Assembly: GCA_029856145.1 (NCBI GenBank)
Contig: JAHQWK010000024.1
Location: 32,001 to 96,000, forward strand
Length of the DNA stretch: 64,000 nucleotides
Direction of reading: 5' to 3'
From: Promethearchaeia archaeon
GTDB taxonomy: Archaea; Asgardarchaeota; Lokiarchaeia; Sigyniarchaeales; SOKP01
The notes beneath the pieces were generated by a model. That model made no database searches and was not told where the DNA came from. It saw only the letters and a program-made list of their open reading frames with translations. Position numbers and translations under genes: made by a program. Below, piece by piece: positions 50,586 to 61,016 of this stretch; positions within the stretch are counted from its first letter, which is position 1; every line of letters starts with the position of its first letter.

Positions 50586-51554
50586 GTGAAAAAAATGCCT
50601 GATATAAGAATTAAGACTCCTCCATTGGATAAAGTATTCGAAAAATGGAAGCAAAGAGCAGTAAGAACGGATCGGAAAAAAATGGAAAAAGAGTTTGGGA
50701 CAAAAGGTGCTGTTTTCTCATTAGACGCAGTTAGCGCAGCTGAATATGTAAAAGAAACCACAAAAGAGGCAGCAATTTATTTTGCACTTAAAAAATCTCT
50801 TGGTCCCGCCCCAAAAGGAAAGGAAGAAAACCTTGTAACAGCCCCAAGAGTTGTTCGAGAACAATTTTATTCCTTTAAAGGAGCTGGAAAGATAAATAAA
50901 GAGGAATGGAAAGGAAATGAAATAGTTCCTCACTTTGAATCAATTCAAGCAGTTTCTTGTAAAAATTGTCGAGGAAAAGGATATATCGAAAATAAATGTA
51001 AAACCTGCAAAGGAACTGGAAAAATTGAGGAAACTTTGACAGTTCTTGTTGGTGAAGAACAGAAAAAGGAAAAGAAACCATTTTCTTATCCCTGTGCAAC
51101 TTGTTTTGGCACAGGAAATAGAACAGAACCTTGCAAAGAATGTGGAGGTTATAAAAATATGTATAAATATGAAGAACTCCCTGTACCATTTCAAACAGTG
51201 GTAACAGGAGCCCCCATCCTTCATTCAAGCGCTCAAACCAAGTATGAAAAGGAGATTGGAGAGGATCTCCATAAAATGATTGAAGACGTCGAAGGAATAA
51301 AATTTAGTGATTTCAAAGAATTAGACTCTAAAGCAGAAGCGTCATTAGGATATTGGAATAAAAATATTAAAAAAACCATTAACTCTGCTGGTAGTGATTA
51401 TAAATCTTATGAAAAAGACAAAGATGCTCAAATTACATCTCAAATTTATCTCTTTCCTATGATTTTGATGAATGCTGAAACGAAACGTGGTAAAAAATTT
51501 GAAATTTATAGTCTTGGATCAGGAGAAAAATTTATGGTATATTCTAACTTCTAA
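50586..51554 (+). CDS. SSUH2-like protein with DnaJ-type CxxCxGxG zinc fingers (no J domain)
   Basis: VPH followed by CKNCRGKG, CKTCKGTG, CATCFGTG, CKECGG; C-terminal GKKFEIYSLG. Confidence 0.75.
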   Translation: MKKMPDIRIKTPPLDKVFEKWKQRAVRTDRKKMEKEFGTKGAVFSLDAVSAAEYVKETTKEAAIYFALKKSLGPAPKGKEENLVTAPRVVREQFYSFKGAGKINKEEWKGNEIVPHFESIQAVSCKNCRGKGYIENKCKTCKGTGKIEETLTVLVGEEQKKEKKPFSYPCATCFGTGNRTEPCKECGGYKNMYKYEELPVPFQTVVTGAPILHSSAQTKYEKEIGEDLHKMIEDVEGIKFSDFKELDSKAEASLGYWNKNIKKTINSAGSDYKSYEKDKDAQITSQIYLFPMILMNAETKRGKKFEIYSLGSGEKFMVYSNF

Positions 51555-55226: not shown

Positions 55227-56237
55227 TTGGATAATACCATAAATTTAAAACTAGTTGTTCTCGGAGAAGGAGATGTTGGGAAATCTTCTATTATAAATGC
55301 TTTTATGGGGAAGCAATTTCCCGAACAGTATTTACCAACAATTGGCAGTGAAACTGCTAAAAAAGAATACGTTATAAAAGAGAGTGGTAATATTATAAGA
55401 GTATTTCTTTCTATATGGGACACAGGAGGTCAGAGGTCATTTAATCCTTTTAATCCAGCTTTATATAAAAATATCGATATAGTTCTGTTAGTTTTCGATT
55501 TAACAAAACCAAAAGAAACATTGGAACTTCTAAAAGAAGAGTTTTTAAAACATGTAAATTATCATTCTGAAGATGTTTTAAAACTATTTATTGGAAATAA
55601 ATTGGATGCACTTACTAATGTTAAGCAGATTAAAACAAATTTGAATAATTTTTTAGCTAAAAATGACAATGTAGTATTCGTATCTGCAAAAACAGGTGAA
55701 AATATTAATGAGTGTTTTGAATTATTGATATATACTTTTTTAAGAAAAGCAGAAATATTGTATCCTGATATTATTCAGAATAATACAGCTACAAGGTTCC
55801 TAAATTTAATTAATAAAAACGAAAATCAATTAAAAATCGGATTAATAAATTTAAAAAATTTAGATTCAATATTAAAAAAGCAGAAGATAAAACCAAAAAT
55901 CAAAGAAGAAAGTGTTGAGGAAAAAGAAATTAAAGAATTGAAATATTATGACTTTCTAAAGCAAGAGTTAGAAAATAACACAACTCAAAAAAGCGATATT
56001 ATGGATCTATTTTTGATTAATTTATCTGAACTTGACAAAACTATAGAGCATTTAAAGAAAACCCACTCTAAATCAGTTAAGGATTTAATTGACAACTTAA
56101 AAGAACTCTTAATTATTACTAAAAAAGATTTTGAACAGAATGTTGACTTAATAGCAAAATTAAATAGAGAAGAATTTGAATTAGTAAAAATCATCTCAAA
56201 AACTAAAGAAGAACAATCAAAACTAAATAAGAAGTAG
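55227..56237 (+). CDS. Rab-like small GTPase with a ~160-aa C-terminal helical/coiled-coil extension
   Basis: GEGDVGKSS, PTIG, WDTGGQ, GNKLD, VSAK. Confidence 0.9.
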   Translation: MDNTINLKLVVLGEGDVGKSSIINAFMGKQFPEQYLPTIGSETAKKEYVIKESGNIIRVFLSIWDTGGQRSFNPFNPALYKNIDIVLLVFDLTKPKETLELLKEEFLKHVNYHSEDVLKLFIGNKLDALTNVKQIKTNLNNFLAKNDNVVFVSAKTGENINECFELLIYTFLRKAEILYPDIIQNNTATRFLNLINKNENQLKIGLINLKNLDSILKKQKIKPKIKEESVEEKEIKELKYYDFLKQELENNTTQKSDIMDLFLINLSELDKTIEHLKKTHSKSVKDLIDNLKELLIITKKDFEQNVDLIAKLNREEFELVKIISKTKEEQSKLNKK

Positions 56238-56294
56238 TTTTTCGCCTAGATAATAAAACAATTATGATTAAAGAATTAATAAAAATGAAAAAAG

Positions 56295-57209
56295 GTGAAT
56301 AAAATATCTGAAGAAATTTCTTTAAAGGAATTCCAGAAATTAAAAGAACAAGTTAGTAAGCTAGATAATAAAATGAATGAACAGTTTAAAAAATCTGAAC
56401 AAAAAACGAATGAGCAAGTAAGTAATCTAGAAAAAAAATTATCTGACAGGTTGGATAAACTTGATCAAAGTCTAAATGAGCAAGTTAATAATCTTGAGGA
56501 GAAATCAACTGAGCAAATCAATAAATTAGAGCAAAAAACAAAAGATCACTTTACACAACTAGAACAGAACATGGATAAGCAGGGAACCTCGACGAGTAAG
56601 AAAATAGAGGATTTAGCAAATATGTTTGAAGGGGAATTAAAAGAAAAATTTACAGCACTTTCAAAGAAACTAGAAGAAAACTTTAAGACACTCAATTTAG
56701 AAATAGAAAATAAATTTAGAACAGTTGACCAAAAGTTAGATAGACATGTTAATAATCTGGAGAATCAAATAGAATCTCTTATAGAAAAAATTAACACTGC
56801 GAGTGAAGATTTTTCTACAAAATTAAATAATTTCAAGGAAGAGTTTGATACTAAAGAAGAGGTTCTTAGAGATATGATTAAAAAATATAATGAAGAAAAC
56901 ACAGAGTTTAAGAACAATCTAGAACCTATGTTAGAGAGACTTAGAAGTGAACAAGATTTAGTTAAAATAACTGTTGATGTGCTTAAAAAACAGATAAAAG
57001 AAAGCGCAAAAGAATGGATTGATGATGAAATAAAATTGGCTTGTAAAAACAAAGAAAAAGAAATTCTTATGAATTTATGGATTGATGAATTGAAAGAAAT
57101 TATAGATAATTTAGATAAATTAAAGGAAATTCATCCAAAAGAACTAAAACTTCATATAAATGAAATTTCGAGTACTATAGAATCATTTAAACAAAAGTTT
57201 TTAAAATAA
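56295..57209 (+). CDS. Apolipoprotein-like helical protein with 11-residue repeats
   Basis: QVSKLDNKMNE/QFKKSEQKTNE/QVSNLEKKLSD/RLDKLDQSLNE/QVNNLEEKSTE/QINKLEQKTKD. Confidence 0.8.
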   Translation: MNKISEEISLKEFQKLKEQVSKLDNKMNEQFKKSEQKTNEQVSNLEKKLSDRLDKLDQSLNEQVNNLEEKSTEQINKLEQKTKDHFTQLEQNMDKQGTSTSKKIEDLANMFEGELKEKFTALSKKLEENFKTLNLEIENKFRTVDQKLDRHVNNLENQIESLIEKINTASEDFSTKLNNFKEEFDTKEEVLRDMIKKYNEENTEFKNNLEPMLERLRSEQDLVKITVDVLKKQIKESAKEWIDDEIKLACKNKEKEILMNLWIDELKEIIDNLDKLKEIHPKELKLHINEISSTIESFKQKFLK

Positions 57210-57610
57210 ATCTTTTTTTACCCTTTCTGAAATAGTACCACCATTGACACCATTGATAAAGTTTTACCGATATCTTTCAATCAGGTCAAAAGATACATTA
57301 ACTCCATTTTTAGAGATTAAATGATTTAAAAAAATGCAATTTACCATCTAAAACATTTTCATTTATAAAGTTATTCATTTATTTGGTCCTAATACCGAAA
57401 TATTAAAGAGAAAAAATCAAAATTTAAATATCTGAACACTCTCTATTTCTTAAGAATCAAATATGATGAGCAAAATAATGTTCTATTTGTATCGACATCT
57501 ATTTAAACAAAATAGAATCTGCAATGAAATGAAAAATTGCAAAAATTAAATAAACATTCATATTCTAATTCTATATGAGGTATTAATAATTATAATCCAA
57601 TATTCATAAA

Positions 57611-59065
57611 ATGACTGACGAATTTAAAGGAGAAGAAAAGGATAGTAAATCGGAAAGGGAAGTTGATAGAATAGATAAGGAATACTTATCTAAAGCTAAA
57701 AACTCAAGAGATATGATAGATAAAAAACTAAGGACATTTGAAAATAGTATTGAAGACATATCAGAAACCATAACAAATGGAGAAACGGCAGAAGAAAAAG
57801 AGACTGAGAAGAAACCTATAGAGGAAATTAGCGAAGAAATAAAAGAAGCTCAGGAAAAACTTAATACTATTAAAAAAAAGATAGATGATAAAGAAGAATA
57901 TCTTACAGCGATTGAAGAGACTATAAAACAGCTTGAAGAAAAGTATAATCGTAAAACTGAAGAGATGGATAACGTAGAGGAGAGACTAAATATTACAACT
58001 GAAAGTAAAGAGAATTTGGAACAAGAATACATGGAACTCTTGAAAAATAATGAACAATTAGTAAAAACATACGAGACAAGGCAAGTGGACTTAATTGTTC
58101 TTACAGATTCAATAAAAGAAAAAATTACTACTCAAGAAGAACTTCGTAATAAAATTTCAAAAATGAATCAAGAGATCCAATCAAAAGAAGATTTACTTAT
58201 AAAACAGAGAGAAGAAGCTGAAGCATTTGAAAAAAAATTAAAAAGTCAACATGCTGAAAATGAGACTTTAAAAGTCTCAATTAGCAAGAATAAAATTGAA
58301 TTAGAACATTCAAATTCAGAAATTGAAGCAAAAGAAGAAGAAAAGAAGCTTTTAACTGAACAGATTGATAAAAGAGAAAGTAGAATTAAAGAGATCGAAC
58401 TAAGAATCGAAGAATATAAAGAAGGGTTTCCAGAAATGGAAAAACAAAGAGGAACATATGAAGAACTCCTTGCTAAATATAAAGTACAATTAACTGATAA
58501 ACAACAACAATTAATTGAAATTGAATCTCGAATACAAGAATTGAATGATACAACAAATAATTTGATAGAACAAATTATTGCTAAAGAAAATCTAATTGAA
58601 GCTAATGAAAAAAGAATAGTGGATTTAAAAAAAGATATTGAAACTTCGAATACAGAGTATATTGAACTAGAAGAAAGATTAGAAGCATTAACTGAAAAAT
58701 TAACGCATATGGAAGCAGAACATGAAAAATTAAATAAATCAAAAGAAGTAATTGAAACTAGCACCAATGACTCAAGAACAATTTTACAAAAACTCAAATT
58801 AGAATTAGAAAGTCAAGAAAAAGAAATTAGAGATAAAGAAAGTAGAATACATAGATTAGAAGTCCTATCTGCTATTTACCGAGCTTCTAAATTTTTTGGA
58901 GGGATTTTAATAGGAGCAGGAATTTTCTTCATAGTCTGGGCATTAGGAATATTTTATCATTTTATTGATTTTGGTAATGCAAATGATTTTATAATGGGTT
59001 TATTCCTATTAATTGGAGCTATTTTATCAATTATTTCAGGTGTATTCCATTTGGAAAAGTCATGA
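57611..59065 (+). CDS. Long coiled-coil protein with a C-terminal two-TM hairpin anchor
   Basis: About 400 aa E/K/L/I-rich coiled coil, then FFGGILIGAGIFFIVWALGIF and FIMGLFLLIGAILSIISGVF. Confidence 0.85.
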   Translation: MTDEFKGEEKDSKSEREVDRIDKEYLSKAKNSRDMIDKKLRTFENSIEDISETITNGETAEEKETEKKPIEEISEEIKEAQEKLNTIKKKIDDKEEYLTAIEETIKQLEEKYNRKTEEMDNVEERLNITTESKENLEQEYMELLKNNEQLVKTYETRQVDLIVLTDSIKEKITTQEELRNKISKMNQEIQSKEDLLIKQREEAEAFEKKLKSQHAENETLKVSISKNKIELEHSNSEIEAKEEEKKLLTEQIDKRESRIKEIELRIEEYKEGFPEMEKQRGTYEELLAKYKVQLTDKQQQLIEIESRIQELNDTTNNLIEQIIAKENLIEANEKRIVDLKKDIETSNTEYIELEERLEALTEKLTHMEAEHEKLNKSKEVIETSTNDSRTILQKLKLELESQEKEIRDKESRIHRLEVLSAIYRASKFFGGILIGAGIFFIVWALGIFYHFIDFGNANDFIMGLFLLIGAILSIISGVFHLEKS

Positions 59066-59126: not shown

Positions 59127-61016
59127 TTGACTGAAAAAGATCAAGAAGAAATTCTTCCAACTCGACACGTAGGATTGTTGGCGGGAATTTTATACGGAAT
59201 TGGGTGTGGCATTGGCGGTTCAATTTTTATTCTATTAGGATCAGCTATTTACGGAGCTCAATCTGGTGTTCTGATTAGTCTAATTTTAGGAGGTATATTA
59301 ATATTTATTACAGCTCTAAATTATAGTGAATTATCTACTAGCTTACCTGTGTCGGGGGGAGCTTATAACTTCAGTAAGGAAGCATTAGGAGGATTTTTAG
59401 CTTTTATAATTGGCTTCTTTTTATGGATCGCAAGTATCCTAACATTCTCATTTTCTGCTCAAGCTTTTACTGTTGTAATAGAAGCTTTTTTTCCTGGAAC
59501 ATTTATTCAAAACTTATTTATACCAATAGCAATTTTATCAATTCTTTTTACTGCTGTAGTCATGTTTCGAACTCAGAAAGTAGCTTTAAGAACTCTGGTA
59601 TCTTTAACAATAGTTTTATTAATTATTTTTGGAATTTTTATTTTTGCGGGTATTTTTATTGCTCCTACTACTAATTTATCAAATTATGATCCAAGTTTTC
59701 TACTTTCTGAAACTAACTTCTTTGTTGTTGTTTTTTGGTTTTCATCCCTATTTATTTTTTTTACAAGTATTACCTCAAATTTAGCTTATATAAATGCGGA
59801 ATTGAAAACCCCATCAAAAAATATTCCTAAAACTAATATATTTGCAATTCTAATAACTCTACTTATTTACTTATCTATAACTATTGTTGTAATGATCAAT
59901 ATTGGTTCTGATACTTCAGGTTTAGAAAATTCTCCAATCTTATTATCATTAGTTTTGAATGATATTTTAGGTTTTCCTGGATATTTACTGATGGGCATCG
60001 CAGCAACAATTTCAACATTTATAGCAATGAATGCTGCTTTAGGTTCTGCCGTAGCTGTAATGTTCGCACTAGCAAGAGATAATTATATCTCAAAAAAATT
60101 TTTAAAAGTAAGTAAAAAAACCAAAGTACCTACCTTAGTAATAATAGTAACAACTACTATAGCGGTATTTTTTACAATTATAGCAATTATTTTTGCAGAC
60201 ATTGGATTTATAGCGAATATCACAACTTTTATTTATTTCTTTGGATTAGCGTTTGTAAATTTTGCAGCTGTTATCCTAAGATATAAAAGAAAAGAATTAG
60301 ATCGTCCTTTTAAAGCACCCTTCTTTCCCTACTTACCTGTGATTATTGGCTCTACTTGTTTAATATTAAGTTTTGTATTAAACCCTAATGCTATACTTCT
60401 TGGTTTACTTATTTTATTTATTGGAATAACGTATTATTTATTGACATTAGCAGATCGTCATTCAGTTATTTTAACCTTAGCAGGATTGAAATTTTTTGCA
60501 CTTGTCCTGGTTGGAATTTTCATTTGGGTTTTAAACAATTTCAGTGTTTTATCCTCTCCAATAAGTGGTTTTTCTTCAATTTTTTCTTATATATTATTAC
60601 GAATACTAATTTCTTTAGGTATATTTGCTGCTGCTACTATTTTTTTTGACATTTTCCCTCTCAAAGAACTGGTTTATTTCTTTATAAAAAGAGTTAATAA
60701 AAAAGAAGTGGCTATTGATATTGGAATTGGCCAAATAATTGAGTTAAAAAAAAGTAAAGCAAAATTAATTTATAATATTAACATCATCATTAGTATAATT
60801 CAAATTCTCTCTTCTATATTTATCTTCATTTTAGTCTCCTTATTTGCAATGGATATAATTTCAATAGATTCAATTACTTTTGGAGCTATTTTTATGCCTC
60901 AAGCAACGGCAGAATACTTATTTAATGCAGTTTTAATTTTTCTTGGCACAACATTATTATTTGGTGGGCTATTTAGTCTTTATTTAAACAAAGAACATAG
61001 AACACTAGGAATTTAA
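59127..61016 (+). CDS. APC-family amino acid permease with extra C-terminal TM helices
   Basis: GIGGSIF, YSELSTSLPVSGGAY, AELKTPSKNIP, RPFKAPFFP. Confidence 0.9.
   Translation: MTEKDQEEILPTRHVGLLAGILYGIGCGIGGSIFILLGSAIYGAQSGVLISLILGGILIFITALNYSELSTSLPVSGGAYNFSKEALGGFLAFIIGFFLWIASILTFSFSAQAFTVVIEAFFPGTFIQNLFIPIAILSILFTAVVMFRTQKVALRTLVSLTIVLLIIFGIFIFAGIFIAPTTNLSNYDPSFLLSETNFFVVVFWFSSLFIFFTSITSNLAYINAELKTPSKNIPKTNIFAILITLLIYLSITIVVMINIGSDTSGLENSPILLSLVLNDILGFPGYLLMGIAATISTFIAMNAALGSAVAVMFALARDNYISKKFLKVSKKTKVPTLVIIVTTTIAVFFTIIAIIFADIGFIANITTFIYFFGLAFVNFAAVILRYKRKELDRPFKAPFFPYLPVIIGSTCLILSFVLNPNAILLGLLILFIGITYYLLTLADRHSVILTLAGLKFFALVLVGIFIWVLNNFSVLSSPISGFSSIFSYILLRILISLGIFAAATIFFDIFPLKELVYFFIKRVNKKEVAIDIGIGQIIELKKSKAKLIYNINIIISIIQILSSIFIFILVSLFAMDIISIDSITFGAIFMPQATAEYLFNAVLIFLGTTLLFGGLFSLYLNKEHRTLGI

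Follow-up and report, generated by a model that had tools for sequence, protein, structure and literature searches.

Two conserved gene pairs, a small GTPase with a hendecad-repeat protein and a membrane-anchored rod with an extended permease, adjoin in a Lokiarchaeia genome

Introduction

Asgard genomes carry dozens of small GTPases (66 matches in the genome studied here), the partners of which are mostly unknown. According to Tran et al. 2024 (PMC10933270), Asgard GTPases include single-domain proteins and fusions with roadblock or longin domains, and a prenylatable C-terminal cysteine is generally absent from the Asgard proteins studied there; the GTPase genes of MK-D1 are described as generally not lying in operons with regulators, and genome layout as rarely helping to match the two (Tran et al., PMC10933270). 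Here, we analyzed a stretch of 64,000 nucleotides (the window) from contig JAHQWK010000024.1 of a Promethearchaeia archaeon, whose genome and family are called the host genome and the host family below. Neighbouring genes in this window encode a Rab-like small GTPase (P1), a hendecad-repeat protein (P2), a membrane-anchored coiled-coil rod (P3) and a permease (P4), and we refer to P1-P2 as module A and to P3-P4 as module B.

An earlier note on this DNA had read P1, P2 and P3 as a split GTPase-tether system for membrane tethering or shaping, which brings to mind the golgins that work with Rab or Arl GTPases and the atlastin and mitofusin proteins. Other described proteins come close to parts of the locus. 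TMCC1-3 have a cytoplasmic coiled coil, two adjacent C-terminal transmembrane (TM) segments and a short cytoplasmic tail (PMC3891740, PMC9860497), and the amino acid transporter GkApcT was described together with MgtS, which came along from E. coli when the transporter was expressed and can serve as an analogy only (PMC5803215).

Results

Linkage of the four genes

Of the 76 host-family genomes carrying P2, 75 have P1 immediately before it (a count that includes a hand tally); the remaining genome (G069) has its locus cut by a contig end, and the open reading frame (ORF) found there ends like the long GTPase variants. The sole case of P1 without P2 inside a long scaffold corresponds to a gap of Ns. 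Two genomes (G072 and G051) have the genes that usually flank the pair, encoding an M32 peptidase and an Fe-S protein, only 93 and 197 bp apart, so that P1 and P2 were lost together, and a further genome (G038) has two loci, each carrying both genes. P1-P2 is thus a real conserved pair. It was found in one Lokiarchaeia family only, the P1 tail and the P2 domain giving marginal matches or none in other families and outside the class.

P3 and P4 are adjacent in 64 of the 67 host-family genomes of our phylum sample (again including a hand tally), with gaps of 23-89 bp, and are found on separate contigs of fragmented assemblies in the other three. The same adjacency occurs in families f3 and f4, and one genome (G009) carries P3 in duplicate, with a permease gene after both copies. 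Outside the class, P3 and a permease gene are adjacent in eight genomes, four of one family and four of another in which the order is reversed; the P3 forms found there are short (about 155-245 aa) and stand beside a permease of ~580 aa.

The link between the two pairs is of another kind. P2 and P3 share a contig, within about 3 kb of each other, in 21 of the 28 same-genus relatives carrying both, and in the 44 genomes from other genera in which the two genes are present, they are always found on different contigs, also in three assemblies of 10 contigs; neither gene was seen in the 8-17-kb loci surrounding the other in about 20 genomes. P3 is kept where P1-P2 is deleted, is present in 93 of the 101 host-family genomes (nearly always as a single copy; P2 is present in 76), and also occurs in other families and outside the class. 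Among 17 genomes, sequence distances of the P1 G domain correlated with those of P2 (r=0.71), those of P3 with those of P4 (r=0.67) and those of the P1 G domain with those of P3 at r=0.08, values that are descriptive only since kin are not independent. The earlier note had proposed a linked functional gene set, and had taken unlinked genes in relatives as an outcome that would speak against it: one part of that set, P1-P2, indeed forms a conserved pair, whereas P3 is unlinked in other genera and pairs with the downstream permease P4.

A PfkB kinase gene comes after P2 in 24 of 24 close relatives, and a close copy of it is absent from the host genome, where the best match has 26-32% identity. 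About 360 of the 401 bases between P2 and P3 align with the DNA that relatives have between PfkB and P3, at 64-84% identity, and TATA-like boxes in this region are kept in a 14-row alignment that spans two genera, the second of which has a different upstream gene. The gap is mostly P3's own conserved upstream DNA, and the simplest reading is that a clean loss of PfkB left it in place. The uninterrupted run P1-P2-P3 is peculiar to the host genome among the genomes examined. Altogether, the comparison of these loci indicates that two independent modules very probably stand side by side because the host genome lost the PfkB gene between them. A three-gene operon P1-P2-P3 was rejected, given the intervening PfkB in close relatives, the separate contigs in other genera and the upstream region that P3 has of its own.

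The rod and the extended permease

P3 is the only TM-bearing protein among P1-P3. Its hydrophobic residues recur with a period of 3.50 (7/2) over residues 70-420, a value that none of 1000 shuffles attained; further on, at about 425-455 and 456-483, come two segments of hydrophobic residues, which agrees with the long coiled coil ending in two TM helices that the earlier note had described. The heptad coiled coil is acidic (net -34), about 350 aa and about 52 nm long, and on its C-terminal side come a conserved juxtamembrane motif, the TM hairpin and a short conserved C-terminus; the juxtamembrane stretch and the hairpin are kept in all P3 forms. A profile of this C-terminal part matched only 30 proteins among 1.84 billion, matches to SMC, Rad50, crescentin, ATG16, ZorA and SpiroCoCo were below cut-off or generic to coiled coils, and no named family emerged at a meaningful score for P3 or P2 in atlas searches.

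P4 matches Pfam AA_permease above cut-off and Protein Data Bank entries of the SLC7/ApcT type, which end at about aa 445, so that an SLC7/ApcT-like core is followed by about four extra C-terminal helices. No homology was detected between these and the P3 hairpin. In most of the host family, a Ser/Thr-rich stretch with a 4-residue insertion replaces G-F-E, the canonical motif of the unwound TM6 (59748-59790), while distant members retain G-F-E, which is present in four genomes (G116, G150, G198 and G004) and in the second G009 copy. In GkApcT, TM6 contributes to the substrate site and to the gate (PMC5803215), so the substrate or role of P4 may have changed.

We consider it somewhat better than an even chance that the extended APC permease P4 has P3 as its accessory subunit. 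The P3 hairpin and juxtamembrane motif would pack against the extra helices of P4, while the cytoplasmic rod, which in Lokiarchaeia presumably grew from about 100 aa to 350-600 aa, would dimerise and serve the transporter as a spacer or scaffold. Several observations weigh against this view. A tetratricopeptide-repeat (TPR) gene follows P3 in family f2, where the extended permease lies elsewhere in the genome, and no extended permease was found in a genome that is 92% complete and has P3 (G037). P3-rod relatives without TM segments (313-342 aa) exist at L108:6461-7402, L109:6717-7721 and L110:6429-7457. Moreover, 27 of 28 aligned rows have a rod of 345 residues without any indel, which suggests a further partner along its length, beyond P4, and may likewise point to a further spacer or scaffold role.

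Part of this evidence can be read in another way, in which P3 would be a membrane-anchored structural rod, TMCC- or crescentin-like, that acts in shape, protrusion or tethering without a GTPase, the permease being merely co-transcribed or one client among others. Such a rod would suit the near-universal single copy of P3, its identity of 47-89% across the host family, its fixed length, the different neighbour in f2 and the retention of P3 in G037. The oldest shared form, however, is a short hairpin protein that always stands beside a permease, in both orders, P3 co-duplicates with the permease, and the crescentin matches are generic, so that we hold the structural rod to be possible and the less likely of the two.

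The genes of the TM-less rod relatives adjoin DUF2061-like genes for small membrane proteins, possibly a rod and an anchor that are split, and DUF2061 is also found 3' of full-length P3 in G037. Longer P3 homologs, of 681 and 570 aa, are encoded at L139:2747-6690 (G382) and L140:2442-6075 (G120), each followed by a conserved TPR gene of ~620 aa.

The GTPase and its partner

P1 scores 110 bits against Pfam Ras and 45 bits against Arf, and its G1-G5 motifs are intact (G13-S20, T38, D65-Q69, N124-D127 and S153-K155), including T38, the catalytic Gln Q69, NKxD and SAK. P1 is very likely an active switch of the Ras superfamily. The AlphaFold2 model (mean predicted local distance difference test score, pLDDT, of 78) places the G domain at aa 4-178, followed by three short helices at 187-218, a flexible linker at 220-238 and a pair of long helices at 236-278 and 284-335, and the complete small GTPase with a helical tail of ~160 aa that the earlier note had announced is thus confirmed. 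Rab and Rho G domains are the best fold matches in Foldseek and VIA, the best VIA match being Rab3C (Z 20.0, root-mean-square deviation 2.5, 169 aligned residues); these searches covered the G domain only and the tail lies outside the matches.

Switch II of P1 has an invariant N73, with P74, N76 and P77 kept in at least 90% of 30 rows, and the resulting N-P-x-N-P motif was not seen in the readable switch II regions of the other small-GTPase matches of the host genome (66 in all, some with the motif unreadable). When the RabF motifs were compared by eye with the consensus, F2 and F5 appeared similar and F1, F3 and F4 divergent, and G3 reads DxGGQ. No cysteine occurs within the last 6 residues in 120 P1 homologs, and P1 has neither a lipidation site nor a TM segment. 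P1 resembles an Asgard Rab-like switch, yet does not have the prenylation site that membership among Rab proteins calls for.

Variants of the GTPase exist in relatives. A separate ORF of ~70-80 aa lies between the GTPase gene and P2 at L075:6445-6681 (G009) and at about 5500-5720 of L073 (G020); it is similar to the final two helices of this tail in the GTPase, which suggests that the tail hairpin can act in trans. P0080 and 21 further GTPase homologs (about 391 aa) have an additional C-terminal motif of ~40 aa that belongs to no Pfam family, and similar motifs are found elsewhere in the host genome (C9:441478, C3:184403 and C32:9052).

P2 family members range from about 170 to 337 aa according to the number of N-terminal repeats, and retain a C-terminal domain of 135 aa in which W262 and P281 are invariant. 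The hydrophobic period of P2 is 3.65-3.67 (11/3), 0 of 1000 shuffles reach it, and identity peaks at lags 11, 22 and 33. Each repeat is hydrophobic at positions 2, 6 and 10 (3/11), with Lys on one flank and Glu/Asp on the other; P2 has no TM segment or lipidation site. Three hydrophobic positions between oppositely charged flanks are the pattern of a parallel coiled coil, unlike that of a lipid-binding class A helix, in which a broad non-polar face has basic residues on both flanks. The amphipathic hendecad repeat noticed earlier thus holds as far as its period is concerned, with the qualification that its narrow non-polar face (about 66 degrees), with the charged flanks, suits a coiled coil more than a helix that binds lipid.

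An ESMFold2 complex of P1 with the P2 C-terminal domain scored 0.59 (best control 0.00), a weak support, with runs agreeing in at least 94% of contacts and a partner pLDDT of at least 78. For comparison, 58 of 80 solved complexes and 2 of 110 mismatches attained the ESMFold2 mark, but those that did so with a score of at most 0.60 comprise only 7 of the 80, together with both mismatches. Taking this model together with the pairing, direct binding between P1 and P2 appears fairly probable. We infer that P2 is a dedicated effector-scaffold or regulator of P1: its hendecad repeats would build a stalk, a parallel homo-oligomer that can be adjusted in length, its conserved C-terminal domain would bind P1 via the tail helices, the switch II peculiar to this family, or both, and P2, which lacks a membrane anchor, would thereby act as a dedicated cytoplasmic effector-scaffold that clusters or positions P1.

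The strict one-to-one pairing, the special switch II and the compact C-terminal domain that makes up the conserved part of P2 would also suit a P2 that regulates P1 as a GTPase-activating protein (GAP), a guanine nucleotide exchange factor (GEF) or a Roc-COR-like dimeriser instead of acting as an effector-scaffold; against this, no likeness to a known GAP or GEF emerged, the P2 domain has no invariant Arg and P1 retains its own catalytic Gln69, which leaves a purely regulatory P2 rather unlikely. We find it more doubtful still that P2 binds lipid as a helix of the apolipoprotein or perilipin kind and, in place of prenylation, brings an anchorless GTPase to membranes or lipid particles. The 11/22-mer repeats, their freely varying number, a Pfam Apolipoprotein match at E=2e-11 and the missing lipidation site of P1 speak for such a helix, but that match scores 44 bits, below the cut-off of 90, the narrow face comes with asymmetric charges and a net charge of -10, and many family members have few repeats.

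The P1 tail and the P2 C-terminal domain share a helix-kink-helix end and can be aligned across 49 columns, but homology between the two is not claimed (probability 0.7%, E 0.076). No GTPase-P2 fusion was found in 32 longer proteins, which is a weak negative as the best 8000 candidates were scored. One protein of 529 aa (P0236) joins a P2 C-terminal domain to an ABC-type ATPase; it lies on one short contig and is possibly an assembly artefact.

Gene layout

Coordinates are collected in Table 1. The three plus-strand ORFs of the earlier note were found where it had placed them, with gaps of 57 bp (P1-P2) and 401 bp (P2-P3), and P4 follows P3 after 61 bp; the source names of close homologs are Promethearchaeota or Lokiarchaeota, in keeping with the Asgard archaeon suggested earlier. 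Runs of the T7 type occur 0.9 times per kb in the window, and the one following P2 is not consistently present in relatives. Before P3, a long region of about 360-500 bp that includes several TATA-like boxes is conserved from genome to genome. A sigma-70 promoter scan, using a model unsuited to archaea, gave hits at chance level only. Further upstream, at 50586-51554, a gene of 322 aa that is kept in this position in relatives has a DnaJ-type zinc-finger region (CxxCxGxG) and is otherwise without Pfam match.

Table 1. Position of modules A and B and of their features in the window
Feature	Coordinates	Strand	Description
P1 (module A, gene 1)	55227..56237	+	Rab-like small GTPase, 336 aa, TTG start
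P1 G3 and switch II (aa 65-77), N-P-x-N-P motif	55419..55457	+	alignment, 30 rows
P2 (module A, gene 2)	56295..57209	+	hendecad repeats and C-terminal domain, 304 aa, GTG start
P2 conserved ~135-aa C-terminal domain	56802-57206	+	
T7 tract right after P2 stop	57213..57219	+	possible archaeal terminator (weak)
Conserved upstream region of P3	57249..57610	+	TATA-like boxes 57362-57369 and 57423-57430
P3 (module B, gene 1)	57611..59065	+	coiled coil and TM hairpin, 484 aa, ATG start
P3 TM hairpin	about 58883-59059	+	hydropathy
P4 (module B, gene 2)	59127..61016	+	APC-family permease, 629 aa; beyond the coordinates of the earlier note
P4 C-terminal extension	about 60456-61013	+	about four more hydrophobic segments; hydropathy

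Discussion

A single golgin- or atlastin-like GTPase-tether system split over P1, P2 and P3, which the earlier note had favoured, is very improbable: the genes are consecutive here and near each other in most same-genus relatives, P3 has a golgin- or TMCC-like layout and unlinked proteins may still interact, but PfkB intervenes in all close relatives, P2 and P3 stand on different contigs in every other-genus genome carrying both, P3 persists where P1-P2 is deleted and in families where the pair was not found, P1-P3 distances are uncorrelated, and the G domain is Ras-like and not dynamin-like. Without P3, P1-P2 has no membrane anchor, and a tether or split-atlastin reading is therefore unsupported here. 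Moreover, P1 and P2 have no TM segment or lipidation site of their own, so that nothing in this locus ties module A to membranes. The idea of an archaeal golgin with its Rab was tempting, and the present result removes it.

The overall explanation that we prefer, and that we regard as probable, is that module A consists of a GTPase and its dedicated partner and module B of a transporter and its accessory subunit. Two points count on the other side: the association within both pairs is genomic, and a shared operon can reflect co-regulation alone among kin that are not independent, while the P1-P2 complex score falls in the weak band. A bolder joint reading, which we consider unlikely, would make P1-P2 an operon-encoded small GTPase with its partner, as a prokaryotic counterpart of the logic of Rab and coiled-coil effectors, and P3-P4 a heteromeric transporter, or a sensor of amino acids, that is specific to Asgard archaea. 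The altered TM6 found in the host family would then point to sensing or to a different substrate, and the 52-nm rod would either pass the state of the transporter on to the cytoskeleton or keep the two at a distance.

Both pairs appear to be undescribed, no paper on P1-P2 or P3-P4 having been found in the literature searched, the coverage of which was incomplete. Among the many Asgard GTPases, P1-P2 is a strictly paired exception, and as both proteins are soluble, their binding and its nucleotide dependence are directly testable. Module B, in turn, suggests that an SLC7-like transporter has an accessory subunit in the membrane, an arrangement conserved across Asgard classes, and two single-contig genomes contain P3 as well as P4.

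Compared to known systems, P3 shares a long heptad rod and a C-terminal anchor with golgins, but it differs by its hairpin instead of a single TM segment, by its tie to a transporter and by having no genomic tie to a GTPase; no golgin family is found among its Pfam and NCBIfam matches, and the genomic evidence points away from P1 as a GTPase that P3 might bind in a golgin-like manner. With TMCC1-3, P3 has in common a cytoplasmic coiled coil, two adjacent C-terminal TM segments and a short cytoplasmic tail, but these are endoplasmic reticulum proteins of animals, whereas P3 is paired with an APC permease, and no Pfam match to the TMCC family was found for P3 at E up to 0.01. The GTPase, helices and TM hairpin of atlastin and mitofusin all occur here but are split over three genes; those proteins have a dynamin-superfamily G domain in one chain, whereas P1 has a Ras-type domain of 175 aa, without any match to dynamin or GBP families in Pfam, and most relatives have the gene for the hairpin protein apart from the other two.

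P4 resembles the SLC7 transporters that work with SLC3/CD98hc in its SLC7/ApcT-like core and its constant small membrane partner, an analogy only: the SLC3 partner has a single TM segment and a glycosidase-like ectodomain, while P3 has a hairpin and a cytoplasmic rod, and P4 itself departs from SLC7/ApcT proteins by about four extra helices and, in most of the host family, by its altered TM6. Finally, P1 shares with the Asgard Rab-like GTPases described so far (Thor-Rab and the MK-D1 set) a Rab-like G domain, the G1-G5 motifs and the lack of C-terminal cysteines; the P1-P2 pair was not found in the family of MK-D1, and P1 differs from those GTPases, as far as the available descriptions go, by its 160-aa helical tail, its N-P-x-N-P switch II and its obligate neighbouring partner gene.

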